Virus record (IMG/VR): IMGVR_UViG_3300001505_000001
Source: a virus
Length of the DNA: 64,000 nt
Strand: one strand, 5' to 3'
The position numbers and the translations under genes were made by a program. This document shows, in pieces, positions 6,315 to 61,380 of this stretch (positions are counted from its first letter, which is position 1; the number at the start of each line of letters is the position of its first letter). A model generated the notes under the pieces. It saw only the letters and a list, made by a program, of their open reading frames with translations, was not told the DNA's origin and made no database searches.

Positions 6315-6354
6315 ATTATATAATAGAAACAAGGGGGTGTCAACCCCTTTTTTA
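6315..6354 (-). promoter_or_regulatory. Terminator-promoter module A: hairpin gggggTGTCAAccccc with T-run (bidirectional terminator). On the minus strand TTGACA (6343-6338) -17- TATAAT (6320-6315).
   Basis: Perfect sigma-A consensus on the minus strand with the -35 inside the hairpin loop. Terminates the leftward cluster 6362-10921 and + strand transcription. Confidence 0.55.
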
Positions 6355-6361
6355 CAATTAA

Positions 6362-6574
6362 TTAAATAAAATCTGTTTTAATTCCATTAAGCTCAAATCC
6401 GTATCTCTCTGCTGCCTCTTTAGCTTCTGGTAAATCATCAAATATCTTAGCTTTGTTTATATCCTTAGTAGTAATTACTATAGTTTCTGTCACTTCTGAA
6501 CCATATACCTTAACCTCTTCTTCGAAGAATCTTCCATTTTCCATAATCACATAATAAACCTTTCCTATATCCAA
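6362..6574 (-). CDS. hypothetical protein (70 aa)
   Basis: Last ORF of the leftward cluster. Tight spacing with upstream genes. Confidence 0.45.
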   Translation of the reverse strand: MDIGKVYYVIMENGRFFEEEVKVYGSEVTETIVITTKDINKAKIFDDLPEAKEAAERYGFELNGIKTDFI

Positions 6575-6585
6575 TTATATCACTC

Positions 6586-6912
6586 CTAATAAAAATCTAC
6601 AATAAGGAAGAAATAATAATTATCATTAAATACAACTTTTTTTCTATATTCTATTGCTTCTACTAGATAATCATTTCTACTAATATCTCTTAGCTCTCTA
6701 TAGAGCAATCTAACGCTTTCTCTGTCTAAATATAGCTCTCCACTATCTACACATACGCCATACTTAAATAATAATTCTTTTACAACGTCATACATGGAAT
6801 CAGTCTCTTTATATAACTCTTGAAATATCCATTGATAAGCGTAATTATCATTATATAATAGATATGCTATATCATCTTTCATTCCAGAATGACACCCATA
6901 AACACAAAACAT
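6586..6912 (-). CDS. hypothetical protein (108 aa)
   Basis: ORF in a co-oriented array. Confidence 0.5.
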   Translation of the reverse strand: MFCVYGCHSGMKDDIAYLLYNDNYAYQWIFQELYKETDSMYDVVKELLFKYGVCVDSGELYLDRESVRLLYRELRDISRNDYLVEAIEYRKKVVFNDNYYFFLIVDFY

Positions 6913-6923
6913 ATTAACACTCC

Positions 6924-7139
6924 TTATATATTAAACAAAAAAGCCATTCCTATTAAAGAAGACAATATTCCTAAAGTGGAAAATATAATAGCTTCTATCT
7001 TGTTATTAGAAACATATACCATTATTTCAGAAAATATAATAAATGCTAACATAATAAATACAATTAGCGTTTCCATATAAAATAACCTCCTAAAAAACTT
7101 CCTATACAGTATTATACCATATAAGAAGTCATTTGTCAA
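6924..7139 (-). CDS. small membrane protein (71 aa, 2 predicted TM)
   Basis: Hydrophobic segments. Co-oriented array. Confidence 0.4.
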   Translation of the reverse strand: MTNDFLYGIILYRKFFRRLFYMETLIVFIMLAFIIFSEIMVYVSNNKIEAIIFSTLGILSSLIGMAFLFNI

Positions 7140-7145
7140 TAAATA

Positions 7146-7661
7146 TTATTGTAATGTATCTTTAAAATTATCCATATTATCTTCAATAAATTCTATTTTT
7201 TCATATAGAGATTCAAAATCTAATTCCATTTGTTTCAGTAAGAACATATCAGTTACAAATACTTTTTTAAGTGACATTGAATGAACTAATTCTATGACGT
7301 TCTTAGAAAATATATTAACTCTTTTCTCGTATTTAACAACCTTTTTATTAAAATCTCTTATCTTACTTTCTTCTAAATAGTTTTCAATAGTACGATTAGG
7401 TAAATCACTTTCAAATTCTAAATCGAAAATCTGATTCATCATGTTACTATATTTATAGTTAATATTTTTGCTTAATGTTATAAGTTCAGTGAATTTATTA
7501 CTAAATAATTTCATTTTATTATTATATTCTTCTTCGTCTATAATCTCCAATCCTTTAAAATTAACTAAATGAACCATAATCTCTTTAACAACATCTGTAT
7601 AAAGTGCCATTTTTTCATTATAGAAATCAAATTTGAGAACATTTTCTAGTTCTAGTTTCAT
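7146..7661 (-). CDS. hypothetical protein (171 aa)
   Basis: ORF in the array. Confidence 0.55.
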   Translation of the reverse strand: MKLELENVLKFDFYNEKMALYTDVVKEIMVHLVNFKGLEIIDEEEYNNKMKLFSNKFTELITLSKNINYKYSNMMNQIFDLEFESDLPNRTIENYLEESKIRDFNKKVVKYEKRVNIFSKNVIELVHSMSLKKVFVTDMFLLKQMELDFESLYEKIEFIEDNMDNFKDTLQ

Positions 7662-7672
7662 ACAAGCACTCC

Positions 7673-7864
7673 TTATTTAAAACTATTTACATCAATAGGA
7701 ATAATCTGATGCATTGCTAAGAAATTTTGCTTTTCAACAAACGCTTTAGCTGATTTTTCTGTATCAAATACAAAGAATTTTTGCTGATTCGTATTAGTTA
7801 ATCCAATAACTTGGAACACTCTACCTTTTCTTTTCATTGCTTTTTTTGTTTCTTCTAAGTTCAT
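7673..7864 (-). CDS. hypothetical protein (63 aa)
   Basis: Short ORF in the array. Confidence 0.4.
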   Translation of the reverse strand: MNLEETKKAMKRKGRVFQVIGLTNTNQQKFFVFDTEKSAKAFVEKQNFLAMHQIIPIDVNSFK

Positions 7865-8016
7865 ATACTATTTTTCTCCTTTATTTTTATAAATTTTTAA
7901 TGCTTATTCTTTGTTTTCTGCATTTACTACATATAATTTTTCATTTTCTCTTGATTTTTCTATATTTTTATGAATATGTCCTATATTATCTGTAAATTCC
8001 CTAATTAAGTATTGGG

Positions 8017-8250
8017 TCATTTAATAGTCACGACCCCTTTAACAACAATAATAGAATCGTGAGAACCATAATCTATATGTGTTTCATTGTTAACTTCCCA
8101 AATTCTTAAATAAGGAGATAAAGGTAATTGTTTTAGTTCTGGTAATTGTTTAGCCATTTCTGACCAACTTGAATCTTTTACAACTTCTCCTAATTTAATA
8201 CCTCTTTTTTGATGATTTTTTCTAAGATAAACTTTAGAATATTCTGTCAT
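8017..8250 (-). CDS. hypothetical protein (77 aa)
   Basis: ORF in the array. Confidence 0.45.
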   Translation of the reverse strand: MTEYSKVYLRKNHQKRGIKLGEVVKDSSWSEMAKQLPELKQLPLSPYLRIWEVNNETHIDYGSHDSIIVVKGVVTIK

Positions 8251-8276
8251 GCTAACAACTCACTCTTTCTAATTTG

Positions 8277-8630
8277 TTATTTTTTGTTCCATTTTGAATC
8301 TGGTTTTAATAAACCTTCCGTCTTTAAATCGTCATTTAAACAACGTACTTCATTATCAGAATTATAATAGACTTTTGCTAAATATCTACCAAAAACATCA
8401 TCTTTATATGTCTGAATATATATTTTTTGACCTTCAACACATAACTTAGTAAAGTTTGTAGCTTCTCTAAAGTTATCTTGACCTCTTTCTGGTGTGTCTA
8501 CGTCAAGAAGTCTCAGTCTACGTTCAGCAGATGTCTTAAATCCTAAATCTAATATTACGTCTATTGTATCTCCGTCAACTACATTAGTACAAACTCCTTG
8601 AAATATATATAAACTATCCTTGATATCCAA
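8277..8630 (-). CDS. staphylococcal-nuclease-like thermonuclease (SNase fold)
   Basis: Motifs VVDGDTIDV and RLLDVDTPE match the Ca-dependent SNase/thermonuclease signature (DGDT ... R-L-x-x-[IV]-D-[AT]-P-E). Confidence 0.65.
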   Translation of the reverse strand: MDIKDSLYIFQGVCTNVVDGDTIDVILDLGFKTSAERRLRLLDVDTPERGQDNFREATNFTKLCVEGQKIYIQTYKDDVFGRYLAKVYYNSDNEVRCLNDDLKTEGLLKPDSKWNKK

Positions 8631-8643
8631 ATTATCACTCCTA

Positions 8644-9108
8644 TTATGCTAAACTATAATCATTTCCGTAAATATCTTTATATATTTTAATCTTATCTGG
8701 AACGCTAGAATGGTATTCTTTAATCCCGTTCATTACACCTAAGCCAATCATTCTTGCATAGGATTGTGTTTTATAAGTTTTTGTATAATTAAACATTCTA
8801 TCCATGATATTAAATGGTCTCAAGTCACATTCTTTATCGAAAATCACACCAATTTTATCATTTCCCATTATTTCTATGTCTCTTTTATGCTCTTTTAGAA
8901 ATCTTTCAGCTACATATAGCTCGTCTTCTGTAAAAATACCGTCAATTTTACTAATAAATACCCCAAATGAGCCACTTTCAACCATTCTAATAGTCTCGAT
9001 TTGCATGTTTTTTCCGTCTATTTTATCGTAAAATGTCTCGATTTCCATAACATTATTAACTTTATTTAAGTCACTTACTTTTAATAAAAAATTCAATTCT
9101 TCATACAT
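8644..9108 (-). CDS. hypothetical protein (154 aa)
   Basis: ORF in the array. Confidence 0.5.
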   Translation of the reverse strand: MYEELNFLLKVSDLNKVNNVMEIETFYDKIDGKNMQIETIRMVESGSFGVFISKIDGIFTEDELYVAERFLKEHKRDIEIMGNDKIGVIFDKECDLRPFNIMDRMFNYTKTYKTQSYARMIGLGVMNGIKEYHSSVPDKIKIYKDIYGNDYSLA

Positions 9109-9135
9109 TTTCCTAATTTCTCCTTATTTTCTTAC

Positions 9136-9465: not shown

Positions 9466-9480
9466 ATTAATCTCTCCTTT

Positions 9481-9798: not shown

Positions 9799-9839
9799 TA
9801 TTAAACACTCCTTTTTGTTTATATATTAATTATAACATA

Positions 9840-10163
9840 TTATTTATCTTTGTCAACCTTAAATTCATTAATAATATCTAAATATTCTTGTCTTTCTTGT
9901 TCTCTTTTCTCAATGGCTTGTTGTTTAGTTGAACGTTTATGTTTAATTACTGTTACTAAAATTTCTGTATTACCTTTCTTTTGTAAGATAAATTCTCTAT
10001 AATTTTTATAAAATATATGTTTTTTGTCTCCAATATTAATAATTCTTTTGTTTTTGAGCGCTTTTAAATCTTTCATTATAGCGTCTCTTGTTTTCTTTTG
10101 ATTATAGTTGATACGTTCTGCATATCTCTCCATTGCATGGTCTGTAATTATGTATTTTGTCAT
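9840..10163 (-). CDS. DUF4258-like small protein (putative RNase-type toxin domain)
   Basis: N-terminus ITDHAMERYAERI resembles the H-A-x-x-R-[ML]-x-E-R-x-I signature of DUF4258 toxin-like proteins. Low-confidence motif match. Confidence 0.4.
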   Translation of the reverse strand: MTKYIITDHAMERYAERINYNQKKTRDAIMKDLKALKNKRIINIGDKKHIFYKNYREFILQKKGNTEILVTVIKHKRSTKQQAIEKREQERQEYLDIINEFKVDKDK

Positions 10164-10180
10164 TTTTAATTCACTCCTTA

Positions 10181-10234
10181 TTTGTTATACTCTTATTATA
10201 AACTAAAACTCTCAAAGTGTCAACCATGAGAGTT
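10181..10234 (-). promoter_or_regulatory. Terminator-promoter module B: hairpin aactctca-[aagTGTCAAcca]-tgagagtt. On the minus strand TTGACA (10223-10218) -17- TATAAT (10200-10195).
   Basis: Perfect consensus promoter with the -35 in the hairpin loop. Between gene 10220-10921 and gene 9840-10163. Confidence 0.55.
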
Positions 10235-10921
10235 AGAAAAACTAGAAATTTTTCTTTTTTTATTTTTAAATTTTACTTTCTTAAATTTTTTATAACTCCA
10301 GTATCTCATTGAATATAAATCTAAAAGTAACTTTGTATAATCTAAATTTAATTCATTCATAATTTTACAAAAACCAATGTCTTTTATAATATAAGTTTCG
10401 TTTTCTTTTTGAATAATATGATTTGAATCATTTTTTAAATCTTCGCATATTTCAAAAATATATTTTTCGTTAGTATCTAAAATATCAGCAATTACTTTAT
10501 GGCTATAATATATTTGTCCATAAAGAACAGAATAAGGAATATTATTCAACTCTGTATTATCGTGTTTGATTCCTTTATCTTTTGGAACATAAGCCATATC
10601 TTTGTTTTTATTATTTTTATTTCTATATTTTCCTAATATTAAATTAGATTTTCTACGTTTCCTATTTCTTCCTTTAAGATTTTTTAATAACAATTCATAT
10701 CCTGTTTGGGATAAATAATATTTATTGTTTTTTAATATTACTATATTTTTTTCTCCTTTTTTTATAGATTTTACAATAGGAACTATTTTATCTTTTCTTA
10801 AATTCAATTGTTCTAATATATCCTCTAACTTAATACAGTATAATATTTTATCTCCTACTTTAAATTCATAAAAATTAACATCTACTTTTACACTATTATT
10901 ATTAAAATTCTTTTTATACAT
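10220..10921 (-). CDS. hypothetical protein (233 aa), possible Bro-N-like N-terminus and basic central region
   Basis: First gene of the leftward cluster. N-terminal pattern NFYEFKVGDKILYCIKLEDILEQLNL is loosely Bro-N-like. Lysine/arginine-rich linker. Confidence 0.5.
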   Translation of the reverse strand: MYKKNFNNNSVKVDVNFYEFKVGDKILYCIKLEDILEQLNLRKDKIVPIVKSIKKGEKNIVILKNNKYYLSQTGYELLLKNLKGRNRKRRKSNLILGKYRNKNNKNKDMAYVPKDKGIKHDNTELNNIPYSVLYGQIYYSHKVIADILDTNEKYIFEICEDLKNDSNHIIQKENETYIIKDIGFCKIMNELNLDYTKLLLDLYSMRYWSYKKFKKVKFKNKKRKISSFSNSHG

Positions 10922-11498: not shown

Positions 11499-11520
11499 CG
11501 GCGAGACGACCACCTGTCCG
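11499..11520. other. candidate cos (cohesive-end) region: isolated GC-rich 22-mer cggcgagacgaccacctgtccg in AT-rich DNA upstream of HNH-terS
   Basis: The HNH plus P27-family TerS plus TerL arrangement is typical of cos packaging. cos sites normally lie just upstream of terS and are GC-rich. Position inferred, not demonstrated. Confidence 0.25.
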
Positions 11521-12360: not shown

Positions 12361-12378
12361 ATAAGGGGGGAAAAGGTA

Positions 12379-26433: not shown

Positions 26434-26850
26434 ATAAAAATAATAGGAGGGGTAAGGTATCTAACAAACAGATACTTTGCCCCTGTTTATTTTTTTGTAT
26501 AATTTAAGACAATAAAAGGTAGATTTTACGTTAACAATGTTCGGATTCTGGTTCTTCAACAGTAATGATTTCATAGTCTTTTACAACAAAAGACGAATTA
26601 TCAGCGAATCTTTTAGCGTCTTGTTCGATATTAAACCATACAGCATCAATAATATTTGTTATCCAACGTTTGTTGCCGTTGTCATCAACACTAAAGTATA
26701 AATATTCTCCATTGAGTTTTTTATAACCAATTACATAAAAATCAGTAAACATTTTAAAACCTCTTTCTTTAATTTGTTAACTTTATTATAGCATACATAT
26801 TTATATTGTCAACACATTTATACATATTTTTTATAAGGAGTGAAAAATAC

Positions 26851-44779: not shown

Positions 44780-44867
44780 ATGGTGGCAACTTTAACGCAT
44801 AAAGAAGCCGTAGAATATGTTAAATCATTAGAAGGAAAATATGTTGACTTTGATGGTTGGTATGGGT
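44780..44867 (+). CDS. endolysin exon 1 (CHAP domain N-terminus, MVATLTHKEAVEYVKSLEGKYVDFDGWYG)
   Basis: Aligns to phi11-type endolysin [29 protein letters not shown]. Exon ends at a U with P1 AUGGGU/GCCCAU (intron 44877-44882). Confidence 0.65.
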
Positions 44868-45184
44868 TAATTGGTAGCCCATGTAAAACTTTTTGAATTG
44901 CTGGAAACCCCTAACGTAAAGACGAGGGCAATCAGCAGCGAAGCTCACATGGTAACAGTGTGTGAACGTTCAACGACTATGTACTATCAATTGATAGGCA
45001 GCGGAAAGCGTTTGACAAATATATACTCCTGTGATATAATGTTTTAATATGAAAATTTTGTCAAATAATGATATAGTCTGGTCTCATATGAAAATATGAG
45101 GCTTTCTTTATGAAAGCTATTAAATGTTATACAATATTATATAGAAATATATAATAGGAAAGGCATTTAATAAAACAAAAAACG
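44868..45184 (+). mobile_element. group I intron 1 in the endolysin gene (no ORF)
   Basis: Stop 9 codons into the intron. P1 helix with U.G. P7-like gttcaacgacta motif at 44967-44978. Terminal G at 45184. Exons rejoin as WYG-YQCFDLANKYW (phi11: WYGFQCFDYANAGW). Confidence 0.6.
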
Positions 45185-46662: not shown

Positions 46663-47505
46663 ATACACAATGATGCCGGAAGTAAATATGCTACAGCAGA
46701 AGCTTATCGTAATGGATTAGTTAATGCTCCATTATCAAGACTTGAAGCCGGTATTGCGCATGCTTACGGCTCCGGTAATACAATTTGGCAAGCATTAGAT
46801 AAATTACAAGTAGGCTGGCACACAGCAAATCCTGTTGGTAACAACGGTTATTATGGTTATGAAGTTTGTCAATCTATGGGTGCAGATGACAAAACATTCT
46901 TAGCAAATGAACAACTAGTATTCCAAGATGCTGCTAGACTTTTAAAAGAAGAAGGACTACCAGCAAACAGAAATACTGTTCGTCTACATTGTGAATTTGT
47001 TCGTACTTCATGTCCACATAGAAGTGCTAAACTACACACAGGATTTGACCCTGTTACTCAAGGTTTATTACCTAAAGACAAACAGTTACAATTAAAAGAT
47101 TATTTCATTAAACAAATCAGACAATATATGGATGGTAAAATACCTACTGCAACAGTTGTTAAAAGTACAAGTGCTTCTAGTAACACTGTTAAACCAGTAG
47201 CATCTGGTTGGAAACGTAATAATTACGGCACTTATTATAAATCAGAAAATGCAACTTATAGCAATGGTAACACACCAATTATCACACGTACAGTAGGACC
47301 ATTTAGAAGCTGTCCTCAAGCAGGATTGTTACCAGCTGGAGCAACTATTGTATATGATACAGTTTGTTTACAAGACTATCATGTTTGGGTAAGTTATGTA
47401 ACTAACAAAGGTTACAGAGTATGGCTACCTATTAGAACATGGAATGGTGTAGCTCCTGGAAACGCAGGATATGCTGTAGGACCATTATGGGGATATATCA
47501 GCTAA
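46663..47505 (+). CDS. endolysin exon 3 (amidase_2 domain plus SH3b cell-wall binding domain)
   Basis: [33 protein letters not shown] ... GWHTAN ... CPHRS ... [10 protein letters not shown], near-identical architecture to phi11 endolysin. Total spliced length 480 aa. Confidence 0.7.
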
Positions 47506-47544
47506 AATAAAAGACAGGTTTTATTCTGTATAAAAGTCGTCAAC

Positions 47545-47639: not shown

Positions 47640-48620
47640 ATGGAAAGAAACAATATTTATAGTGAAGAAATATATAAAAAAGTAAATGATGAATCAAAAG
47701 AGCTTTTAAATGATTATATATTAGAGTTAAAGGTTCGTAATCGAGCAGAAAAGACAATTACACAATATGAATTTGATTGTAAAATGTTTATGTGTTATGT
47801 TTATGATAACATGAACAACAAATCATTACTTGATTTAAAACGCCGAGATTTTAGGAATTTCTTTTTATTCTTAAAAGAGAGTGGAAAATCAGCAGCAAGA
47901 ATCAACCGTGTTCAATCTTCAATAAGAAATCTCTTACAGTTTGCCGAAGACGACGAAGAAATATACGAAGATTATGAAGTTAATCCTATGAGAAAAATTA
48001 AATCAGTTGAGAAAGAACCTGTTAGAGAGATTGTGTTCTTAACAGATGAACAAGTTACTTATTTAATTGATTATTTATTAGAGAAAGGTAAAACACAAAA
48101 AGCATTGTTTGTTAGTTTTGCTTATGATAGCGTAGCTCGTAGAAATGAAATATCACAAGTTCAAAAATATAGTTTCCAAGACACAACTAAATCAAGCACT
48201 AACGAAGTTGTGGGTAAACGTGGAAAGAGATTTAAGTTAATGTATTCTCAGCGTACTAAAGACCTTGCTAAAGAATGGCTGGCTGAACGTGGAGAAGATG
48301 ATGTTGATAGCTTGTGGATAAGTTACTATAATGGTAAACCACGTGCTATTGTATATGACACATTTTATTCTTGGGCTATATCATTTAGAAGTATATTAGA
48401 AGAAAAATACGATGTAGATTTACCATTAAATGCTCACTCGTTCCGTCATAGTGGAGCTGAGAATTATGAAAATGGTACACATAGCTCATTACAATTTATG
48501 GGTAAAGATAGCTTAAACATAAACGAACTAAAAATATTAATGAATCATGAAAGTATTGATATTACTAATAGTTATTTAAGAAATAAAGACCAAGAAATAT
48601 TGGAAAATTTATTCTCATAA
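47640..48620 (+). CDS. tyrosine recombinase (XerC/XerD-phage integrase family)
   Basis: N-terminal core-binding (SAM-like) domain. Catalytic ARRNE, HSFRHS, NSYLR (R..HxxR..Y). SD ggagg plus ATG at 47640. Confidence 0.7.
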   Translation: MERNNIYSEEIYKKVNDESKELLNDYILELKVRNRAEKTITQYEFDCKMFMCYVYDNMNNKSLLDLKRRDFRNFFLFLKESGKSAARINRVQSSIRNLLQFAEDDEEIYEDYEVNPMRKIKSVEKEPVREIVFLTDEQVTYLIDYLLEKGKTQKALFVSFAYDSVARRNEISQVQKYSFQDTTKSSTNEVVGKRGKRFKLMYSQRTKDLAKEWLAERGEDDVDSLWISYYNGKPRAIVYDTFYSWAISFRSILEEKYDVDLPLNAHSFRHSGAENYENGTHSSLQFMGKDSLNINELKILMNHESIDITNSYLRNKDQEILENLFS

Positions 48621-48656
48621 AAAACAAGACTACTGTAACAGTAGTCTTTATACATA

Positions 48657-49966: not shown

Positions 49967-50500
49967 TCATTCTCCTTTTATCTCATTACACATATATTGT
50001 AACATATCTTGACTGTCTGCGTCAAGTACAATATCAGCAAAATATGGAGCCGAAACAAATAAATCTCTGTCAACTGATAATCTTCTATTTACTTCATCAA
50101 TAGAATCTCCACGTTCTTTTGCTCTCTGTCTGATTAAATCTTCAGAAGCATTTATATAAACGGAGGTTACTAAACTCCCAAACTCATCTTTAATAGCTCT
50201 AAGACCTTCTGGGTCAGTTATAACTATTTTTTCTTGTATTGGAATTAAATCTTCTTTTTTCATTGCATAAATAAATGGTTCTTCTCTGTATTTAGTATAA
50301 AAATATCTATGTCCAAAGTATTGTGGATTTTCTAATTCTTTTGTTGAAACAAAATGATAATCTTTGCCATTAATTTCTCCATCTCTCATAGGTCTGTTGG
50401 TATATGTTGTTACTTGCTCAATTCCTGTAGATGTTACCAAATCTTTTACTAAAGTTGTTTTCCCACTAAGTGTTTGTCCAACTATTGCATATATTTTCAT
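49967..50500 (-). CDS. guanylate kinase-like nucleoside monophosphate kinase
   Basis: P-loop GQTLSGKTTL and TYTNRPMRDGEINGKDYHFVS (guanylate kinase signature T-T-R-x-x-R-x-x-E-x-x-G-x-x-Y-x-F-[VI]). SD aaggagg. Confidence 0.7.
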   Translation of the reverse strand: MKIYAIVGQTLSGKTTLVKDLVTSTGIEQVTTYTNRPMRDGEINGKDYHFVSTKELENPQYFGHRYFYTKYREEPFIYAMKKEDLIPIQEKIVITDPEGLRAIKDEFGSLVTSVYINASEDLIRQRAKERGDSIDEVNRRLSVDRDLFVSAPYFADIVLDADSQDMLQYMCNEIKGE

Positions 50501-50523
50501 AAATAACTTCCTCCTTTGATTAT

Positions 50524-50557
50524 ATTATATAATAAAAAGAAAAGTCCTGTCAAGGAC
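50524..50557 (-). promoter_or_regulatory. Terminator-promoter module C: hairpin gtccTGTCAAggac. On the minus strand TTGACA (50553-50548) -18- TATAAT (50529-50524).
   Basis: Hairpin overlaps the Pnkp stop codon. Consensus promoter serving the guanylate kinase gene. Confidence 0.5.
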
Positions 50558-52857
50558 TAATCTTGTGTTTCTTTGTAATAATCATTTCTTAAAGTAATAA
50601 TGTCATTCTCTAAACATTCTTTATCTTGTTGTTTCGCCCAATAGTAGAAATTAGTAAGCGTTTTGTCTTTTTGTAAAATCGCTTGAATAGGTCTTCTCTG
50701 TAAATTGCCTTTTGATAATGATTCTACTAAGCTACGCATATATTTCCAGTTATTATAATATGGTGTTTTATATTTTAACATAAAGCCACTATTATCCTCA
50801 AACACAAACCCCTCTATTGCAATTGAGCTGTCTCTTTCCAAATCTTTATAGAAATTAAACAAATCATTCCAATTAGAGAAAGAAAAATGAGGTGTAGATA
50901 TATTTTTATCAATACCAATAATATTTACTGCAACGTAAACAAGAGTTTCATTAAATAATTTGTTGAATTTAAGAGTATTATCAATAGCGTCTAATAAAAC
51001 CACTCTTCTTTTACCTGCCTCATAGATAATATGTGGGTCATTAATGTTGTCTATTACCTCAAACAGCAGTGTTCTATTCATGTCTTTTAAATACTCTTTT
51101 GCAGATTCAATTTGCTCATTATTCCATGTTTCTTCAACAATTTCTTTAAATAATAAAGCAAAATCATTATCATATTGTGATAAATGAGTTCTTGATTTAC
51201 TAGCATAAATTAACTTATCTCGATTACTATCATAAAACATTAATCCTAAGAATCCATTATATTTTAATGAAGCAGTAACTGGGAATTTTAAAGTGTCGGG
51301 CAAATTCTCTAAATTGGTCTCGGGTCTTTCATTAATATTGAAAAATTTATTATAACCTCTGCCAACAATTTCATTCGTGCTTTCATCAATAAACAATCCT
51401 CTAGCAGTAACAGATAATTGATTCCAATGTTTTCTTTTAAATGCTCTTTTAGTGAAGTTCACAGATACTACATTATCATATTGTGGAACTACTTTAATAT
51501 ATTTATCTTCTTTTGCAAGTCTTAAATACTCTTCAACTGTTAAATTGGTGTCAATATCTTTTGTATAATCATTATTTAATAGAAATTTGGAATTAAATAT
51601 TTCATTTTTAATTTCGTGTGGCGTTAAAGTATTATCACTATTAATTGTAACAGCTCTTAAGGAACCACCTTTTTCAACTCTGCCTTCTAAATTGATAGAT
51701 TGTTTTGTTATATTTAATGGTTCTCTATAAAGATTTCTGTGTCCATGAATTTGTATAGTGTCTGAATTTTCCCATTGTTCATCAATTTGATATTCATATC
51801 CACCTACGCCATTAATAATTTGATGTGTAGATACTAAATTAATATCATCTAACATATTAGGCAAAATACCACCATGATTAATCATATAGTATTGACCTTT
51901 GTAATTAAAGTATAACATTTGTTGTAAACTATGAACGATACGTCTTACTCTTTTTTGACTAACACCATAATTCAAAAATTCTTTAAGAGTAGGAACAAAC
52001 CCTCTAGCATGAAACAATTCTATTGCAGTATCAAAAAATGTTTCATTTGTAGTATTTGAATCGTCTAATGCGTTATTTAATTTTAGATATTTATCTTCAT
52101 CTAAAAAAGCGTATCTTCTTAAATGTTTTTCATGATTACCTTCCAACAATACTACATTAGGTTGTTTGTAAATTAGTTCTAAATAGTCAAACATCTCTTT
52201 GGTTTCTAAACCTCTATCAAAGTAATCTCCAACAAAAATAAATAGTTCATTTGGATTATCAATAATTTTTTGGTAACTTGCAAATTGATTAATTGCTGTA
52301 AAGCATGAGTGAATATCTCCAATAACATGTATTTTATCATAATTGTCGGTATCAAGGAAGTCTTTATCCCATTTAATCTCATTCATTAATTTATTTGGTT
52401 TAATTTCTGTAGCATAACTAGGGATATGTTCATGCTGTAATCTTTCATAAATATTATAAATTACTTCTTCTGGAACTTTCTTTAACTCTTCTCTTTGGTT
52501 ATTGCGTTCAATTAATGTGTCTAAATCTTGTTCAACAGTTACTACATAAGTACGATAACGATATTTACGTGCTAATGTTTCATATTTTTTAATTAATTTT
52601 CCTGTAGAATGTGTAGCGTCAATAACAGTAAAATCCCCATTAATCATCCTTTCTTCAAGAATTTCCATTAGATTATCCCAAACTTGATTATCGTGTTTTT
52701 GTGAGATAACTCTCATTCCTTGTTCATTATACACAGGGCTTGTGTGCATTTGTCTAAGTTCATCTGGAGATATTGTGTATGGCTCTAAACCATTCTCCTT
52801 AATAAAAGTAGACTTACCAGCCCCTGGTACGCCTCTCATTAATACTAATTGTTTCAT
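50557..52857 (-). CDS. Pnkp-like RNA-repair enzyme: polynucleotide kinase (P-loop) plus calcineurin-type phosphoesterase plus C-terminal ligase-like nucleotidyltransferase domain
   Basis: GVPGAGKST (kinase P-loop). GDIHSC, GDYFDRG, GNHE (metallophosphatase motifs I-III). C-terminal domain with lysine motif KYNGF (KxDG-like). SD aaaggag before MKQLVLMRG (ATG at 52857; the track ORF starts 12 codons earlier). Confidence 0.6.
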   Translation of the reverse strand: MKQLVLMRGVPGAGKSTFIKENGLEPYTISPDELRQMHTSPVYNEQGMRVISQKHDNQVWDNLMEILEERMINGDFTVIDATHSTGKLIKKYETLARKYRYRTYVVTVEQDLDTLIERNNQREELKKVPEEVIYNIYERLQHEHIPSYATEIKPNKLMNEIKWDKDFLDTDNYDKIHVIGDIHSCFTAINQFASYQKIIDNPNELFIFVGDYFDRGLETKEMFDYLELIYKQPNVVLLEGNHEKHLRRYAFLDEDKYLKLNNALDDSNTTNETFFDTAIELFHARGFVPTLKEFLNYGVSQKRVRRIVHSLQQMLYFNYKGQYYMINHGGILPNMLDDINLVSTHQIINGVGGYEYQIDEQWENSDTIQIHGHRNLYREPLNITKQSINLEGRVEKGGSLRAVTINSDNTLTPHEIKNEIFNSKFLLNNDYTKDIDTNLTVEEYLRLAKEDKYIKVVPQYDNVVSVNFTKRAFKRKHWNQLSVTARGLFIDESTNEIVGRGYNKFFNINERPETNLENLPDTLKFPVTASLKYNGFLGLMFYDSNRDKLIYASKSRTHLSQYDNDFALLFKEIVEETWNNEQIESAKEYLKDMNRTLLFEVIDNINDPHIIYEAGKRRVVLLDAIDNTLKFNKLFNETLVYVAVNIIGIDKNISTPHFSFSNWNDLFNFYKDLERDSSIAIEGFVFEDNSGFMLKYKTPYYNNWKYMRSLVESLSKGNLQRRPIQAILQKDKTLTNFYYWAKQQDKECLENDIITLRNDYYKETQD

Positions 52858-55425: not shown

Positions 55426-55440
55426 TATAAACTACCTCCT

Positions 55441-55986: not shown

Positions 55987-56393
55987 TCCTTTATTGTTTT
56001 AATTATTATTACTATAACACCTATCACAATAATTGTCAATATAATATATAAAAATAATATTGGATGAATAAAACATAGTGCTAATATTGAAAATATACAA
56101 CCACCTAATATACCACACAACAATAACTTATACCATTTAACTTTTTCTTCTTGATTGAAATCATTAAGAAAGATAATAACTATACTAAATACAGAAAAAA
56201 ACCAAATCATAGCGGGTGTGGTTAAAATATATGATTGAATATTGAAATGGTTTAATATTAAACTAGGAAGTATTGCAATAAAAGATATTACACCAATTAT
56301 AATAACAATTCCAGACAAAACTAATAACACTAATATTATAGGTAATAGTAAGTATTCCCACAAATTTTTAAATAGTTTTTTAATAAAATTCAT
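55983..56393 (-). CDS. membrane protein (136 aa, 4 TM)
   Basis: Four hydrophobic segments. Confidence 0.45.
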   Translation of the reverse strand: MNFIKKLFKNLWEYLLLPIILVLLVLSGIVIIIGVISFIAILPSLILNHFNIQSYILTTPAMIWFFSVFSIVIIFLNDFNQEEKVKWYKLLLCGILGGCIFSILALCFIHPILFLYIILTIIVIGVIVIIIKTIKE

Positions 56394-56412
56394 TAATTTT
56401 TTCTCCTTTAAT

Positions 56413-56604: not shown

Positions 56605-56632
56605 AATTAATTCCTCCTATAAAATTTATGTT

Positions 56633-56869
56633 TTAACCCGCATCATAATGGTTATCATTTAAATCATAATCTGTATTTACAGGTCTAACTCTATCCCAGT
56701 CTATACTTGCTTTAAACTTAGGTCTAAAATCTCCATCTCCATCGGCATATATAGAAACTGTTCTTGATGCACCTAAATTACCTAAATATTCCATTTTATC
56801 TAACATTGACATAAAATCATTAACCCATCTTTCTTCCATTTCAACTTCAATTGTAAATTTCTTTTTCAT
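56633..56869 (-). CDS. hypothetical protein (78 aa)
   Basis: ORF in the array. Confidence 0.4.
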   Translation of the reverse strand: MKKKFTIEVEMEERWVNDFMSMLDKMEYLGNLGASRTVSIYADGDGDFRPKFKASIDWDRVRPVNTDYDLNDNHYDAG

Positions 56870-56898
56870 AATATTTCCTCCTATATAAATTGTATGTT

Positions 56899-57408
56899 TT
56901 AAATTCTTTCAATTGTATCAGTGTTTAAATTCAAACAATATTTTACCTTTTTATCTAGTCCTCCTTTAGTGAAACCCTCGGATGTTCCTTGCCCTTGCAT
57001 ATAAAAATACTTAAACAGTTCATTATTGTATCGTAAGTATATATCCATACCGAAATATGTTTCAATATAAAATGGAGGATATTCCATCACATTATCATTG
57101 TAAAAGTTATTGATATACTTACAAATAGATTCTAACTCTTGATGCATAAACTCTTCACTTGAATATAGATGTTTATACTTATCGTTATAGAGATACAGAA
57201 TATCTTCTGTTGAGATACTTCCGAGTATCTCAATTGTCTCAGTAAACATTTTATTTAAATCAAAATCTTTGTTTTTGGCTTTCTTTAAAATTAAATTTCT
57301 TCTATTTTCTTTTTCTTTTAATCCATTATTAATGCTTTCTATTTGTTCATCAGTCATATTTGATATATTTTTCAATATTTTATCAAATTTGTCATCTATA
57401 TTACTCAT
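56899..57408 (-). CDS. hypothetical protein (169 aa)
   Basis: ORF in the array. Confidence 0.45.
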   Translation of the reverse strand: MSNIDDKFDKILKNISNMTDEQIESINNGLKEKENRRNLILKKAKNKDFDLNKMFTETIEILGSISTEDILYLYNDKYKHLYSSEEFMHQELESICKYINNFYNDNVMEYPPFYIETYFGMDIYLRYNNELFKYFYMQGQGTSEGFTKGGLDKKVKYCLNLNTDTIERI

Positions 57409-57640
57409 ATAGTATCGCTCCTTATAAAATGATTCTTTTATTCTGTAATTTTAACGTCAACGACGGGCTTCGTCGATTATTATTTAGGCTTGCCTAACTT
57501 TTATGAGCTACTTGTCTTTCTTTATGATATTTTTACTATAATTTTTGTTGCTATTAAACTGCAAATTACTTTTATCTTTTAAACTTTCTTTTTTCTTATC
57601 TTTTTCCATATTTAAAACTCCTTTACTTTATTATAGTTTG

Positions 57641-57677
57641 ATTATATAATAAAAAACACCCCTTGTCAAGGGTGTTT
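57641..57677 (-). promoter_or_regulatory. Terminator-promoter module D: hairpin acaccccTTGTCAAgggtgt plus A/T run. On the minus strand TTGACA (57669-57664) -17- TATAAT (57646-57641).
   Basis: Hairpin overlaps the stop of gene 57666-58808. Perfect consensus promoter. Confidence 0.55.
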
Positions 57678-58808
57678 TAAAAATTCTGTTGGGTTTTTAT
57701 AACTTGGTTTTTGAACCTCTAATTTACCTTCTAAATTGTTATAGGTAAGAGTAGGAGTATTTTCAACGTCAAAAGGAATAATCTCTTTACTTTTATTCAA
57801 TATTTCATCTATCTCGCTCATTAAGTGAGAAAAATCCGCAAATGACGATTCAACTTTGTTTAAATTGTTTTTACGGAAGCTATAAGTTTTTCTAAAAGGC
57901 TTAATAATAAAATGATATACGTTGTTTTTTCTTACATAATCAAATTCTAAAGAATAATCATCGTGAACCTTTAAACTTTTCTCTTGTAAAATATATCCAT
58001 TAATTGGTATTTTTGTAATACTATCAAAAGCATCTTGAAAGTTTGAAAGGTCATACAATAATTCATTAGTATATGATTCTAGTTTTTCTAAAATATTATT
58101 ATTTACTACTTTATAATTAGGGACAGCAGAATAAAAAGACATTCTGTCTAAAGATATTGCTCTTCCTTTTGATTCATTGGCTCTTAATGATGAAAAATTA
58201 TTATAATCATTTTCTGTTAATAGTAATATTTTTAACTCATTTGATAAATTAAATAAACTAATAACAAACGGGATATTTGAATATTCAAAATGTGTAGATA
58301 GTAATTCATCTTTATTAATATATTTATTGATTTTTTGTTTTGTGTCGTTAAAAATATCAATATTTTTGTTTAAATTGTAAATACTATTTTGAATATCTTT
58401 AATTATAAATGGTACTGTTTCTTTAAATTCTTCTTTGTATAGTTCATTTTTACTTAAGGTCTTCGTATAAGAATAATGTAAATCGTATTTTTTATTACAT
58501 ATAGTAATTTCAATCACACCGAAAAAACCTGTATAAGAAAAGTCTATATATGCTGATACTTTATATTCGTCAGATATATTATAAGTAAATTTAGATAGTT
58601 TTAATTTTGTATTGTTTTCATCAAATGAATAATTAGGAAATATTTTTTCTAATTGCTTACCTATCTCTTTGTACATATACTCTCTTGATACTTCTTCTTT
58701 TTTATTAACAACATTATCAACTTTGTTTTTCATTATATCTGAATGATACACATACATTAACACTAAAGCAATAACAATTAGTAATAAACCAATTAATAAA
58801 AATAGCAT
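57666..58808 (-). CDS. membrane-anchored protein (380 aa; N-terminal TM)
   Basis: N-terminal hydrophobic helix, rest soluble. Confidence 0.5.
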   Translation of the reverse strand: MLFLLIGLLLIVIALVLMYVYHSDIMKNKVDNVVNKKEEVSREYMYKEIGKQLEKIFPNYSFDENNTKLKLSKFTYNISDEYKVSAYIDFSYTGFFGVIEITICNKKYDLHYSYTKTLSKNELYKEEFKETVPFIIKDIQNSIYNLNKNIDIFNDTKQKINKYINKDELLSTHFEYSNIPFVISLFNLSNELKILLLTENDYNNFSSLRANESKGRAISLDRMSFYSAVPNYKVVNNNILEKLESYTNELLYDLSNFQDAFDSITKIPINGYILQEKSLKVHDDYSLEFDYVRKNNVYHFIIKPFRKTYSFRKNNLNKVESSFADFSHLMSEIDEILNKSKEIIPFDVENTPTLTYNNLEGKLEVQKPSYKNPTEFLKHP

Positions 58809-58826
58809 TATAATTAATCTCTCCTT

Positions 58827-59180
58827 TTATTTTTTAAGAAACTCTTCGATTTTATTTTGTTTTTCTATACTTTCGTTTCGTTTTTTCTGTTTTTCATTTA
58901 CATACTCTTCATAATAAACATCAATTAAATCAAATACATTGTCAGACTTATAAATTCTTGCATTCGCTATATCTATACTAAAATCAGTGGTTAAGTCGAT
59001 ATATGTCGTCAATGTGTTATTTTTTACAAATACTAAAGTTGAAATTATATCATTTTCGATATAACGTATTTCATAACCATCTCTTAAACTATATATTTTA
59101 TCGTTACTTTGAGTTTTCGACGACCCATGTGTTTTAATATATTGTGCTAAATCTAAAATATTAAAATCCATTCTTATCAA
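58827..59180 (-). CDS. hypothetical protein (117 aa)
   Basis: ORF in the array. Confidence 0.45.
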   Translation of the reverse strand: MIRMDFNILDLAQYIKTHGSSKTQSNDKIYSLRDGYEIRYIENDIISTLVFVKNNTLTTYIDLTTDFSIDIANARIYKSDNVFDLIDVYYEEYVNEKQKKRNESIEKQNKIEEFLKK

Positions 59181-59202
59181 TCTCCTTATTTATTATATAT
59201 AA

Positions 59203-59238
59203 ACTATAACATAGAAAAAGACCCCTGTCAATAGGGGT
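59203..59238 (-). promoter_or_regulatory. Terminator-promoter module E: hairpin gaccccTGTCAATAggggtc. On the minus strand TTGACA (59231-59226) -17- TATAGT (59208-59203).
   Basis: Same architecture as modules A-D. Confidence 0.5.
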
Positions 59239-59284
59239 CAAGTCAAAAGTTTAACATTTTTTTCATTTTCAATAATTAATTACA

Positions 59285-60079
59285 TTACTTTAAGTTAACA
59301 ATAGGGTCTCCACCAATATTAATTGGTTGGTCGCCCTTCCATTTTTCAATAAGTTGTTTTTGTAATAACTCATCACTTAATGATTGTTCTACGATTTCAT
59401 TTGCTTTCTTAGTACCTTTTGCTTCAATTTCTTTACGTTCAGCTTCTTCCTTAGCAATTTGTTTGTCTACTTTTTTACGTTCTAATTCTTGATTTGCTTT
59501 AACACGACTGTCAATTGCTTTTTGAGTGTTCTTGTCAGCTTTTGGAGAACTTAAAGCAATATCCTCAACAATAAATCCTTGACCTTTAAGATTCTCTTCA
59601 AGTTTATCTAAAGTAGATTTTTTAATTTCACTTGTTTTAACACCGAAAGCATCAATTACTGAATACTTAGAAACAGATTGACGTACGTTATCTTGTACTC
59701 TTGAACGTAGATAACCTTTTTCTAGTTGTTCAATATCTGCACTACCGAATCGATTAAACAATTCAACAGCTTTTGAACTATCAACTTTATAGTTTACATC
59801 AATATCTAAATTAAGATTTTTACCATCTGACGTTGATACATTCATGTCTTTGTAACTAATGGTTTGTGTTCTTGTCGGATATTCATTAACTCTATTCATT
59901 GGTGCTACTACATGCCAACCAGGACTTAAAGTATTGTCTTTGACCCCTTTAGGAGAGTATACAACACCTACTGTTCCTTGTGGAACTCTTTCAATACATA
60001 AGATTGCTATAACAAACAATACAATAACTCCCACCACTAATGCTGATAAGATACCACCTGCTTTAATTTTACTATTCAT
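59285..60079 (-). CDS. SPFH (band 7/stomatin/prohibitin-HflK/C-like) domain membrane protein
   Basis: N-terminal TM then VPQGTVGVVYSPKGVKDNTLSPGWHVVAPMNRVNEY ... typical SPFH start. C-terminal coiled-coil. Confidence 0.65.
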   Translation of the reverse strand: MNSKIKAGGILSALVVGVIVLFVIAILCIERVPQGTVGVVYSPKGVKDNTLSPGWHVVAPMNRVNEYPTRTQTISYKDMNVSTSDGKNLNLDIDVNYKVDSSKAVELFNRFGSADIEQLEKGYLRSRVQDNVRQSVSKYSVIDAFGVKTSEIKKSTLDKLEENLKGQGFIVEDIALSSPKADKNTQKAIDSRVKANQELERKKVDKQIAKEEAERKEIEAKGTKKANEIVEQSLSDELLQKQLIEKWKGDQPINIGGDPIVNLK

Positions 60080-60081
60080 AA

Positions 60082-60357
60082 TTAATCTTCTCCTCTTCTA
60101 ATATCATCATGTAGTTTTTCTAATTCCTCAATATCATTGTCTAATTGTGCGACCTCTGATTCATAACCAGTGATTTTTTGTAGGGCGTTTCTTTTATGCT
60201 GTTTAAAATTTATTTCACGTTCTATCCATGTTATTTCTCTGTCAGTTTCATTTTTTTTAATATGTTCTGTTACATAAGGAATTGTCTTTCTTATGAAAAT
60301 ATATGAAACCATAAATATAATGCTAAACACTAACAAAAAAATTAATATCCATACCAT
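60082..60357 (-). CDS. small TM plus coiled-coil protein (91 aa), possible SPFH partner
   Basis: 3-nt gap to the SPFH gene. N-terminal TM. Confidence 0.4.
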   Translation of the reverse strand: MVWILIFLLVFSIIFMVSYIFIRKTIPYVTEHIKKNETDREITWIEREINFKQHKRNALQKITGYESEVAQLDNDIEELEKLHDDIRRGED

Positions 60358-60368
60358 TTATAGCACCT

Positions 60369-61061
60369 CTATGTTAATATTGTTAATGCTGATTTAGACC
60401 AATTTTCTAAATCTAGTTTTTCAATCTCTTCTTTTGTTTTAAATGAACCTTCTAAAGTATCGGTTTCTTTAGATTCAACTGTCCAATTTTCTGGAATAAC
60501 AATAACATTTAATACTCCTAAATGAACAGAATCAACCTCTGTTTTTTCGTTATATAATAAACCAATAATAGCTGATTCTTTAGTGATTTCATAATGATTA
60601 GTAATTTCAATACCGTCGTCAGTTTTAATAGTAACTTCTTCTTCAAGTTCTCTTGAGTTATTTACTGCTAAAATATGTTCAAAATTCCAAGCGTGCTCTA
60701 CCTCATTTTGATGTCCACCTATACCTATTGAAGATTTACCATGTAATCTAGATTCTCCACTGCCTTCAAGTCTAGTATAAGTAAAATATTTATCTCCTTG
60801 CGCAATAATTGTGTAGGGAATTGGTTGAACGAAATCAAAATTCTCTTCTAAGTCTCCACGTCTACCAACAACCCCTGCAATTTCCCATAAATTATTTAAA
60901 GTATTAATCATTGCATCATAGTCTTCTAAGTTAGTAGGAGCCAACACTTCTACATTTAACATATCTTGAATTAAATTAATTTTTTCTAGTGCTGACTTAT
61001 TAAGTGCTAAAATTTGTTCATCATTTTTATTCATAAATAATTTCTCCTTTTTAATATTCAA
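60369..61061 (-). CDS. hypothetical protein (230 aa) with degenerate Nudix-like motif (..NNSRELEEEVTI..)
   Basis: Partial match to the Nudix box REUxEExGU. Weak. Confidence 0.4.
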   Translation of the reverse strand: MNIKKEKLFMNKNDEQILALNKSALEKINLIQDMLNVEVLAPTNLEDYDAMINTLNNLWEIAGVVGRRGDLEENFDFVQPIPYTIIAQGDKYFTYTRLEGSGESRLHGKSSIGIGGHQNEVEHAWNFEHILAVNNSRELEEEVTIKTDDGIEITNHYEITKESAIIGLLYNEKTEVDSVHLGVLNVIVIPENWTVESKETDTLEGSFKTKEEIEKLDLENWSKSALTILT

Positions 61062-61320
61062 ATTTTAATTCAGCATTTTCTGTATCAGAGATTAGTACAT
61101 AGTCATCTGATACAGTGCTTAAATCAATAGGCTCATCAAAAGCTAGTACAATAGATTTTTCGTTAGGTTCATATTTTTGGAATTTAACCAAGTTGTATTT
61201 ATCAGCGTGTTTAACTACCATCATAATGTGGTGTTCATCATTTTTGGATAACTTGTGTTTAACCAAATCTCCCACCTTCAAATCTAATTTACGATTTCCT
61301 TCTTGAAAAATAAACTTCAT
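61051..61320 (-). CDS. hypothetical protein (89 aa)
   Basis: ORF in the array. Confidence 0.4.
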   Translation of the reverse strand: MKFIFQEGNRKLDLKVGDLVKHKLSKNDEHHIMMVVKHADKYNLVKFQKYEPNEKSIVLAFDEPIDLSTVSDDYVLISDTENAELKFEY

Positions 61321-61351
61321 AATATTTTCTCCTTTCTAACAATCTAATTAT

Positions 61352-61380
61352 AGTATAACAGATGAAAAATCATCTGTCAA
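61352..61380 (-). promoter_or_regulatory. Terminator-promoter module F: TTGACA (61380-61375), hairpin cagatgaAAAAtcatctg in the spacer, TATACT (61357-61352)
   Basis: Immediately after the DnaE stop. -35 / 17 nt / -10. Confidence 0.45.

Follow-up and report, generated by a model that had tools for sequence, protein, structure and literature searches.

Promoter-early stem-loops (PeSLs) are composite promoter-terminator motifs that were described in the T4-like bacteriophages RB49 and phi1 (Arbiol et al. 2010, PMC2839356) and subsequently reported from PST/T4 and nt-1/KVP40 (Comeau et al. 2014, PMC4122927). The parts of a PeSL are an AT-rich tract, a promoter that comes close to a perfect TTGACA-N17-TATAAT, a stem-loop that is stable and often of the GGGG..CCCC kind, and a Shine-Dalgarno sequence (SD) with an ATG codon; the stop codon of the upstream gene lies at its 5' edge. 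PeSLs are divided into five subclasses according to the position of the stem-loop, i.e., between the -35 and -10 hexamers, overlapping the -35, overlapping the -10, upstream, or downstream (PMC2839356, PMC4122927). In lacZ reporters they had strong promoter activity and termination comparable to that of rrnB T1 (PMC2839356). A role as linkers in the shuffling of modules was also proposed for them; crossovers were mapped to the segment from the -10 to the ATG, and a mini-circle idea was put forward in this connection (PMC2839356). Their authors reported no evidence yet of PeSLs outside T4-like phages (PMC2839356, PMC4122927). Here we describe six modules of about 40 bases, designated A to F, in which a putative terminator is fused to a predicted promoter. 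They are located in a stretch of viral DNA of 64,000 nucleotides (nt), IMG/VR record IMGVR_UViG_3300001505_000001, and the whole of this stretch is called the window.

The window belongs to the genus Sextaecvirus, that is, to siphoviruses of Staphylococcus epidermidis similar to 6ec and SEP9. A megablast search with its 50-62 kb part matched 98 Staphylococcus phage records. The best matches were Sextaecvirus CF9, the S-CoN_Ph series, BE02, 6ec and SEP9, which infect S. epidermidis and other coagulase-negative staphylococci; at 57.3-59.5 kb the identity between S-CoN_Ph14 and the window is 99.8%. Our literature search turned up no publication on the promoters or terminators of either SEP9 or Sextaecvirus. 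We estimate at roughly 0.8 the probability that the modules are terminator-promoter punctuation of the PeSL type, which would separate leftward early or middle units read by the host sigma-A RNA polymerase. The architecture is already known in kind. What is new is the range of hosts and phages, the explicit geometry, and the contrast between phages and cellular genomes.

Anatomy of the six modules

A preliminary description of the window, made from its letters only, reported six minus-strand modules in which TTGACA is followed after 17 or 18 nt by TATAAT, TATAGT or TATACT. All six were found in place. In a scan with the sigma-A consensus they are among the very best promoter matches of the window: A-D score 12/12, and E and F score 11/12 with a TG-extended -10. 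The modules are as follows (hairpins are written as 5' arm/loop/3' arm; ORF, open reading frame).

6284..6349, minus strand: module A, 12/12; -35 at 6343-6338, spacer 17, -10 TATAAT at 6320-6315; hairpin 6349-6331, AAGGGG/ttgacac/CCCCTT, -8.5 kcal/mol, with the -35 TTGACA in the loop; the T-rich tail gtttctatt makes the 17-nt spacer; SD 6298-6294; ATG 6284 of a 40-aa ORF (6162-6284); the stop codon of the upstream ORF 6362-6574 lies 12 nt before the hairpin.
10163..10234, minus strand: module B, 12/12; -35 at 10223-10218, spacer 17, -10 TATAAT at 10200-10195; hairpin 10234-10207, arms AACTCTCA and TGAGAGTT around a 12-nt loop tggTTGACActt that holds TTGACA (tabulated as tggttgacactt), -11.4 kcal/mol; the stop codon TGA 10222-10220 lies inside TTGACA and ends ORF 10220-10921; tail ttagttt; SD 10179-10175; ATG 10163 of a 107-aa ORF.
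50500..50559, minus strand: module C, 12/12; -35 at 50553-50548, spacer 18, -10 TATAAT at 50529-50524; hairpin 50558-50543, AGTCCT/tgac/AGGACT, -11.3 kcal/mol, z -3.6; the RNA ligase stop codon TAG 50559-50557 overlaps the 5' arm; T-run tttcttttt; SD 50516-50512; ATG 50500 of guanylate kinase.
57609..57678, minus strand: module D, 12/12; -35 at 57669-57664, spacer 17, -10 TATAAT at 57646-57641; hairpin 57678-57653, AAAACACCCTT/gaca/AGGGGTGTTTT, 11 pairs including one G·U, -14.4 kcal/mol, z -4.3; the stop codon TGA 57668-57666 lies inside TTGACA and ends ORF 57666-58808; SD 57623-57619; ATG 57609 of a 33-aa ORF.
59171..59239, minus strand: module E, 11/12; -35 at 59231-59226, spacer 17, TG-extended -10 TATAGT at 59208-59203; hairpin 59239-59220, GACCCCT/attgac/AGGGGTC, -12.7 kcal/mol; the upstream stop codon lies 46 nt before the hairpin; T-run tttttct; SD 59187-59183; ATG 59171.
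61320..61386, minus strand: module F, 11/12; -35 at 61380-61375, spacer 17, TG-extended -10 TATACT at 61357-61352; hairpin 61379-61356, TGACAGATGA/tttt/TCATCTGTTA, -13.4 kcal/mol, z -5.4, filling the spacer; the DNA polymerase gene ends 3 nt before the -35 with the stop codon TAA 61386-61384, after which comes TAG in the same frame (TAATAG); SD 61334-61330; ATG 61320.

Modules A-E have a common geometry: the -35 is at the apex of the hairpin, and the T-run on the 3' side, with 6-8 T in the 9 nt after the stem, is the promoter spacer. F has no T-run after its stem, the tail being tactataat. The stems are of 5-11 bp with 3-5 G-C pairs, the loops are of 4-7 nt (12 nt in B), and the hairpin energies range from -8.5 to -14.4 kcal/mol. 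In all six modules an SD and an ATG follow about 30-40 nt past the -10. As in an intrinsic terminator, the G+C-rich stem stands on the sense strand just after a stop codon, and a U-tract is present in A-E and absent from F. Upstream of the -35, an AT-rich tract is evident in A, B, E and F; the corresponding bases of C and D are coding sequence and hairpin arm. Some details of the preliminary description need correction. TTGACA was placed in the loop of five modules, which is right for A and B; the hexamer of C, D and E is partly in the stem and partly in the loop. In F, where it was placed before the hairpin, its TGACA begins the 5' arm. The T-run ascribed to every hairpin was found in A-E. 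The reported overlap of the hairpin with the upstream stop codon is seen in B and D (the TGA within TTGACA) and in C (the TAG in the 5' arm); the stop codons of A, E and F lie upstream.

The modules share with PeSLs a near-consensus promoter, a stem-loop in one of the described positions, an upstream stop codon on the 5' side and an SD with an ATG on the 3' side. A-E correspond to the subclass overlapping the -35, and F to the subclass located between -35 and -10. A locus of SEP9, 63684-63627, where GenBank has a terminator abutting a promoter, corresponds to the type with the stem-loop just upstream. Like PeSLs, the modules occur among small early ORFs of unknown function, and three of them (C, E and F) may resemble PeSLs in an association with indels between close relatives. 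The two groups also differ in several respects. The window comes from a Gram-positive siphovirus (Sepunavirus myoviruses share one module, see below), whereas PeSLs are known from T4-like phages of Gram-negative bacteria. The copies in RB49 and phi1 are conserved over about 100 bp, whereas the modules of the window are 41% identical outside the hexamers and form no repeat family. The use of the U-tract as spacer in A-E, which gives full canonical intrinsic terminators, is a geometry not spelled out in the PeSL papers. Finally, the activity of PeSLs is known from the RB49/phi1 reporters, and the modules are known here from sequence alone. By their layout, we class the modules as PeSL-like functional analogues and not as homologues of the T4-type repeats.

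The preliminary description also spoke of a templated architecture and a sequence family. Only functional motifs turned out to be common to the six modules. Two modules are on average 49% identical over their whole length and 41% identical when the hexamers are left out, compared with 29% for random 71-mers; the excess over random comes mostly from the T-run and the SD, and hairpin-less promoters are just as similar. A supposedly related loop at 47528 shares with the modules only the 10-mer CATGGTTGAC and has neither an enclosing stem nor a -10. Matches to this 10-mer with at most one mismatch number 5, against 2.2 expected. The 47528 site, which we do not count as a family member, adjoins the plus-strand terminator of the endolysin gene.

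Chance, DNA recognition and RNA hairpins

Promoter-like and hairpin-like strings could meet by chance in AT-rich DNA. Indeed, weak promoter-like matches are about as common in the window as in shuffles (168 vs 146 and 144 vs 135), and matches of 12/12 also occur in coding sequence (43706) and in a group I intron (45012). However, neither of these two perfect matches has a hairpin. When the flanks of 11 strong minus-strand promoters preceding genes were shuffled, 0.10 modules with hairpin and T-run were expected, and 5 are present (Poisson 8e-8). Every module is intergenic and stands on the sense strand, with an SD and an ATG after it; the modules are conserved in relatives, and the design recurs in unrelated viral contigs. 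The preliminary description had reasoned that a chance motif would be equally frequent inside coding sequence. This is not the case, and no module lies within coding sequence. The occurrence of the modules is far beyond chance, and an accidental origin is extremely improbable.

The hairpins themselves point in the same direction. Among terminator-like hairpins of the minus (early-gene) strand, TTGACA is the commonest apex hexamer (5/33); on the plus strand it is found at no apex of such hairpins. The same pattern of TTGACA at the apex is observed on the early-gene strand of the complete genomes of SEP9 and BE22.

The intron with the match at 45012 is itself of note. This group I intron (Rfam RF00028, 109 bits) occupies 44858-45100 on the plus strand in a split endolysin region with HNH-type ORFs nearby, and the match inside it is a perfect TG-extended TTGACA-17-TATAAT at 45012-45040.

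An inverted repeat over a promoter can serve at the level of DNA or RNA. A palindrome centred on the -35 box is the classic operator layout, so a dimeric regulator of the phage or the host might bind the repeat and shut the early promoters, the T-run being incidental. The genus encodes small "transcriptional regulator" proteins as well as its own sigma factor, and a factor binding the -35 of early promoters has been the subject of speculation for Kayvirus (PMC9241854). Nevertheless, the arms of A-F are unrelated (GGGG, CTCTCA, AGTCC, CACCC, GACCCC and CAGATGA), and no half-site recurs; stems of unrelated sequence argue against a common protein site. Besides, the hairpin-less half of the promoters has the same -35.

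Comparison of relatives is informative at F. Its inner stem exists in three versions, all of which pair: CAGATGA/TCATCTG in the window, CAGGCA/TGTCTG with G·U pairs in SEP9, and CAGAGA/TCTCTG in BE22 (cores ATGA/TCAT, GCA/TGT and AGA/TCT, respectively). The arms change between relatives with pairing kept, which speaks against an operator, and G·U pairs are meaningless for duplex recognition. In module E of BE02 a C-to-T change keeps pairing as U·G. The T-run is strictly on the 3' side of the sense strand. We consider regulation through an operator very unlikely.

The preliminary description suggested that cruciform or hairpin formation in DNA could gate promoter activity. Promoters in hairpin form exist in phage N4, and each of the six modules has its -35 or its spacer within an inverted repeat, so that supercoiling might extrude DNA cruciforms or single-strand hairpins there. 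The N4 virion RNA polymerase promoters resemble the modules in having an inverted repeat within the promoter region. They are, however, DNA hairpins for an RNA polymerase that the phage encodes; bases of their loops and stems are conserved, and -35/-10 hexamers are absent. The modules have host sigma-A hexamers, arbitrary stems and signs of an RNA-level function. The annotations of SEP9 and BE22 contain a sigma factor but no phage RNA polymerase. Stems of 5-7 bp are too short for stable cruciform extrusion, and those of A, C and E are of this size. According to the hairpin scan, D has 11 pairs on the minus strand and 5 on the plus strand, and G·U pairs become A·C mismatches on the other strand. 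One-sided T-runs, as well as UUCG-type tetraloops in the homologous class of viral contigs, point to RNA. Gating by DNA structure therefore appears highly improbable.

Because the stems differ, F covaries, G·U pairs occur and the T-run is one-sided, the data favour hairpins that would act as RNA terminators or attenuators of the upstream transcript over an operator or a cruciform.

The modules were said to stand one at each boundary of leftward operons, which is an overstatement. About half of the strong early promoters have no hairpin, and a terminator at the end of a cluster has no promoter. These features are:

7111..7139, minus strand: perfect TTGACA-17-TATAAT early promoter without a hairpin.
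9856-9829, minus strand: hairpin-less promoter of the same class.
11604-11575, minus strand: hairpin-less promoter of the same class.
26812-26785, minus strand: hairpin-less promoter of the same class.
56039-56011, minus strand: hairpin-less promoter of the same class.
48626..48648, minus strand: plain intrinsic terminator that ends a leftward cluster, AAGACTACTG/tta/CAGTAGTCTT followed by gttttttat, with no fused promoter; it is annotated as a terminator in 6ec and SEP9, too.

Strong promoters without a hairpin mean that the fusion is optional.

Relatives, mosaic junctions and viral contigs

Module A is conserved in SEP9 and BE22, and B is 100% conserved in both. Across 8-10 relatives the identity of the modules is 97-100%, and the informative differences are those in F, in the loop of D and in the one wobble change of E. 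GenBank records of SEP9, 6ec and the Kayvirus phage ISP place terminators, and in SEP9 also a promoter, on the same or abutting bases. In particular, the 6ec record has terminators at D and E, and the SEP9 record has one at the place of E; at SEP9 66904-66873, where the loop of a hairpin contains TTGTAT, a hexamer similar to the -35, the annotated promoter and terminator occupy the same bases. Scans of the complete genomes revealed modules outside the part corresponding to the window, namely at SEP9 70265 (AAGAACAGTT/gacaa/AACTGTTCTT) and SEP9 65366 (ACCCCCTTG/acat/TAAGGGGGT), and a hairpin of the spacer type at BE22 42831 (TGACACCT/ttag/GGGTGTCA). Module D with its flanking genes also occurs in BE09 and PG-2021_23, which are Sepunavirus myoviruses (Herelleviridae), in the same architecture with another loop and another -10. 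A search for homologues of the DNA polymerase gave seven viral loci, and those at 36% identity (L004-L007 in our numbering) have no sigma-A matches of at least 11/12, which made them unsuitable for the comparison.

Phage ISP (FR852584.1) is similar to the window in host genus, sigma-A consensus and the role of such elements between transcription units. Its annotated terminators and promoters touch or overlap at 4511-4541/4530-4568, 16672-16702/16701-16729 and 43523-43557/43556-43584. The arrangement in ISP, however, is a tandem: the hairpin and T-run come first, the -35 stands right after the T-run, and the T-run is the AT-rich upstream region. By having the -35 within the hairpin and the T-run as spacer, A-E of the window save about 20-25 bp. 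RNA-seq of the staphylococcal phage K revealed pronounced ends of transcripts at 43 predicted terminators, as well as early and middle promoters of a sigma-70-like type (PMC9241854). One more type of promoter with a hairpin was noticed at 48443-48471 of ISP (L013) and at SEP9 54154. There, the hairpin is of 12-14 bp, the -35 is in its 5' arm, and the 3' arm runs into the -10 (ATACCACTTGACAT/tttat/ATGTTAGGTGGTATaat).

We compared the 47-64 kb part of the window with eight relatives and found three modules at mosaic breakpoints. Compared with 6ec and SEP9, the window has an insertion that comprises the RNA-ligase gene (778 aa; insertion region 50532-52851) and, from module C, the hairpin, -35, T-run, -10 and SD. 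In these two phages, the stop codon and SD of the preceding gene run directly into the guanylate kinase ATG. The junctions of the insertion are in the SD-ATG region and within the -10 of C. At E, homology with SEP9 continues through the module and ends right after the SD, and another cassette lies beyond. At F, phages Ph9, CF1 and BE22 are longer by 852 bp, which hold an HNH endonuclease and a small ORF and separate the polymerase gene from the module, and identity to these phages drops from 98-99% over the downstream 4.7 kb to 77.6% in the 3' part of the polymerase gene. PeSL crossover sites, between the -10 and the ATG, resemble these junctions of C, E and F.

Some further differences between relatives were observed in this part of the window. 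The polymerase region of low identity is 61420-64000, and SEP9 is interrupted at 63768/63770. BE02 has an internal deletion in the RNA-ligase gene (52252-52647), the remnants of which are annotated as "baseplate distal hub subunit". Two early-gene cassettes, 55987-56409 (94%) and 56856-58100 (81%), are common to the window and Sepunavirus myoviruses (L011, L012), and the ends of these blocks are the same as breakpoints among the siphoviruses, which indicates a recent exchange across families.

The hairpins could be selected mainly as recombination linkers or for protection or processing of mRNA 3' ends, with termination weak or secondary. The lack of a U-tract in F and the weakness of A would agree with this, as would the coincidence of C, E and F with mosaic junctions, the sharing of the D region with Sepunavirus myoviruses, and the linker role proposed for PeSLs with crossovers from the -10 to the ATG. 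However, many other breakpoints are at plain gene boundaries or hairpin-less promoters, e.g., 55987 and 56409; the ends of the 55987-56409 block are breakpoints among siphoviruses as well. An identity of 41% outside the hexamers is too low for homologous recombination between copies, and A-E have complete intrinsic-terminator anatomy. We regard such a primary role as unlikely. C, E and F are located at mosaic breakpoints, but in this small sample an enrichment of breakpoints at fused modules is unproven.

Morons, reportedly described by Hendrix and co-authors in 2000, are phage gene cassettes flanked by their own promoter and terminator. The modules would likewise bound autonomous insulated units, and the RNA-ligase cassette with the terminator, promoter and SD of C at its 3' end behaves like an inserted unit. 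In a moron, a single gene has the promoter upstream of it and the terminator downstream; morons are mostly found in prophages, and their orientation is often opposite. In the window, by contrast, a fused element is shared by two units that follow each other in a lytic early-gene array.

Beyond staphylococcal phages, we searched for an apical -35 with the pattern CCTTGACAGG-N15-TATAAT, which fixes only the promoter and two closing pairs. A match was counted as a full module if the stem extended by at least 4 pairs and was followed by at least 5 T in 9 nt. The figures are from the first 120 matches in the viral set and the first 120 in the cellular set, and the two samples differ in taxonomy. 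Among the matches listed, full modules account for 30/119 in IMG/VR (23/90 after dereplication, 22/75 at low-GC loci) and for 0/119 in bacterial and archaeal genomes (0/118 and 0/23, respectively). Fisher's p for these listed matches is 7e-10 after dereplication and 0.0014 for low-GC loci. The chance expectation for stem extension alone is 2.4. The viral stems listed are many and unrelated, and the GC content of the viral loci is 0.33-0.48.

For modules of the F type, IMG/VR was scanned with TTGACAG-N12-CTGTTATACT; 34/126 matches have at least 5 extra pairs in the spacer, against about 0.9 expected by our arithmetic, and many of them have UUCG-type loops. A DNA search with contig L116 from IMG/VR matched only a tRNA. 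In a protein search, the MoxR-like ATPase of L119 matched PA5oct-like jumbo phages and other phages of Gram-negative bacteria at no more than 53% identity, which is not decisive for T4-like kinship. Among the matches listed, the fused terminator-promoter appears to be a recurrent, convergent and phage-enriched design that is rare in bacterial chromosomes.

Uncultured viral contigs within L141-L260 (e.g., L156, L186, L187, L197, L211, L142, L201 and L241) are identical downstream of the -10 (TATAATatgtaaagatt...). The stems around their -35 differ, and all pair: agaggg/ccctct, agcacc/ggtgct, aagaga/tctctt and ggaac/gttcc. This group looks like a repeat family with covarying stems in one phage lineage.

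Gene layout, proposed function and significance

The genes of the window form the following blocks:

1-4.7 kb, plus strand: rightward block of small genes.
4.9-12.5 kb, minus strand: leftward small early and replication genes, first block.
13-48 kb, plus strand: rightward structural and lysis module.
48.6-64 kb, minus strand: leftward small early and replication genes, second block.

The genus encodes its own sigma factor, outside the window, and we therefore take the host-type promoters of the leftward genes to be, presumably, early or middle promoters.

Several other features of the window deserve mention. Between the converging blocks, 4790-6135 is a stretch of about 1.3 kb without credible genes. 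It is ACA/TAC-rich and of low complexity, with short degenerate tandem repeats such as atctaatacaatctaatacaatctaatac and ggttataaggttataaggttata; the ORFs called in it are Y/T/I-rich artefacts, and a strong plus-strand terminator at 6114-6135 closes it. An origin or a role in packaging is conceivable for this stretch. In SEP9, the physical ends of the genome (cos) map to what is 11753/11754 in the window. The perfect TG-extended promoter at 11604-11575 is 150 nt from this position and reads inward, and about 650 nt downstream of it have no ORF of at least 50 aa.

A lone leftward 73-aa gene (26531-26812, minus strand) lies inside the rightward structural module, just upstream of the tape-measure gene. 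It has its own promoter, a perfect TTGACA-16-TATAAT at 26812-26785; its homologue SEP9_013 is annotated in SEP9 with a promoter and bidirectional terminators. In addition, the Rfam family "Staphylococcus sRNA 808" (RF02897, 212 bits) has a full-length match at 47061-47315 on the plus strand, within the endolysin ORF 46876-47505. This family may be just derived from phage lysin sequence.

As for the modules, the fusion of a terminator with a sigma-A promoter that was put forward in the preliminary description is well supported by canonical anatomy, strand specificity, location at ORF ends, covarying or wobbling stems and agreement with the PeSL layout, except that F lacks the T-run. The proposed course of events is as follows. 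As the polymerase of the upstream unit transcribes the inverted repeat, the ribosome would release at the stop codon in or beside it. The RNA hairpin would then fold so that the -35 sequence stands at the apex. The spacer, transcribed into a U-tract, would cause termination or attenuation, with a predicted 3' end 2-8 nt upstream of the -10. The same duplex DNA would offer a sigma-A promoter with an SD and an ATG, so the next unit would be restarted at its own set level. The units would be insulated, with no build-up of read-through and no occlusion of the downstream promoter, and the upstream mRNA would gain a protective 3' hairpin. All these signals would fit into about 65 bp of intergenic space. 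The reporter results on PeSLs and the transcript ends of phage K lend the proposal support indirectly. Since stop, start and ribosome-binding signals are carried together, cassettes could be exchanged at the modules without disturbing their neighbours.

A number of points weigh against this interpretation. Termination and initiation at the modules, and the efficiencies of both, are predictions from the sequence. The hairpin of A is weak (z -0.7), and the loop of B is 12 nt long. F, having no U-tract, may do no more than attenuate, pause or stabilise RNA. A hairpin is missing from about half of the early promoters of equal strength. The modules have hardly diverged within the genus, and covariation rests mainly on F. 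The contrast between viral contigs and genomes comes from the first 120 matches of each, which differ in GC content (0.42 vs 0.52).

In vitro, RNA polymerase of E. coli can stay on DNA after intrinsic termination and re-initiate at promoters nearby, the efficiency being dependent on the distance from terminator to promoter (PMC6978380, PMC11347151). In the modules, RNA would be released 2-8 nt before the next -10, which would leave the polymerase on the next promoter. By analogy, a module with zero distance between terminator and promoter might hand the same polymerase to the next unit and so be a phage-specific means of capturing scarce host RNA polymerase along an array of early genes and resetting transcript boundaries. 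We consider such a handover rather unlikely. If true, it would account for the frequency of the fused form in viral contigs (23/90) and for its absence from the matched cellular sample (0/118) among the matches listed. The same elements would then also be portable junctions for cassette exchange between unrelated families of staphylococcal phages.

The conceptual advance is incremental. Terminator-promoter punctuation of the PeSL type would extend elements of this kind from T4-like phages of Gram-negative bacteria to a Gram-positive siphovirus genus and to Sepunavirus myoviruses. It comes with a geometric rule, in which the -35 is at the hairpin apex, the U-tract is the spacer and the stop codon is often inside TTGACA. 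The modules would be ready-made "stop-restart" insulating parts of about 65 bp for synthetic staphylococcal operons and a natural test bed for RNA polymerase recycling at zero terminator-promoter distance. In therapeutic S. epidermidis phages, they mark likely boundaries of transcription units and of recombination, which may be used in annotation and engineering. The comparison of viral and cellular DNA gives a first quantitative hint that the design is a trait of phages and not a general bacterial one.

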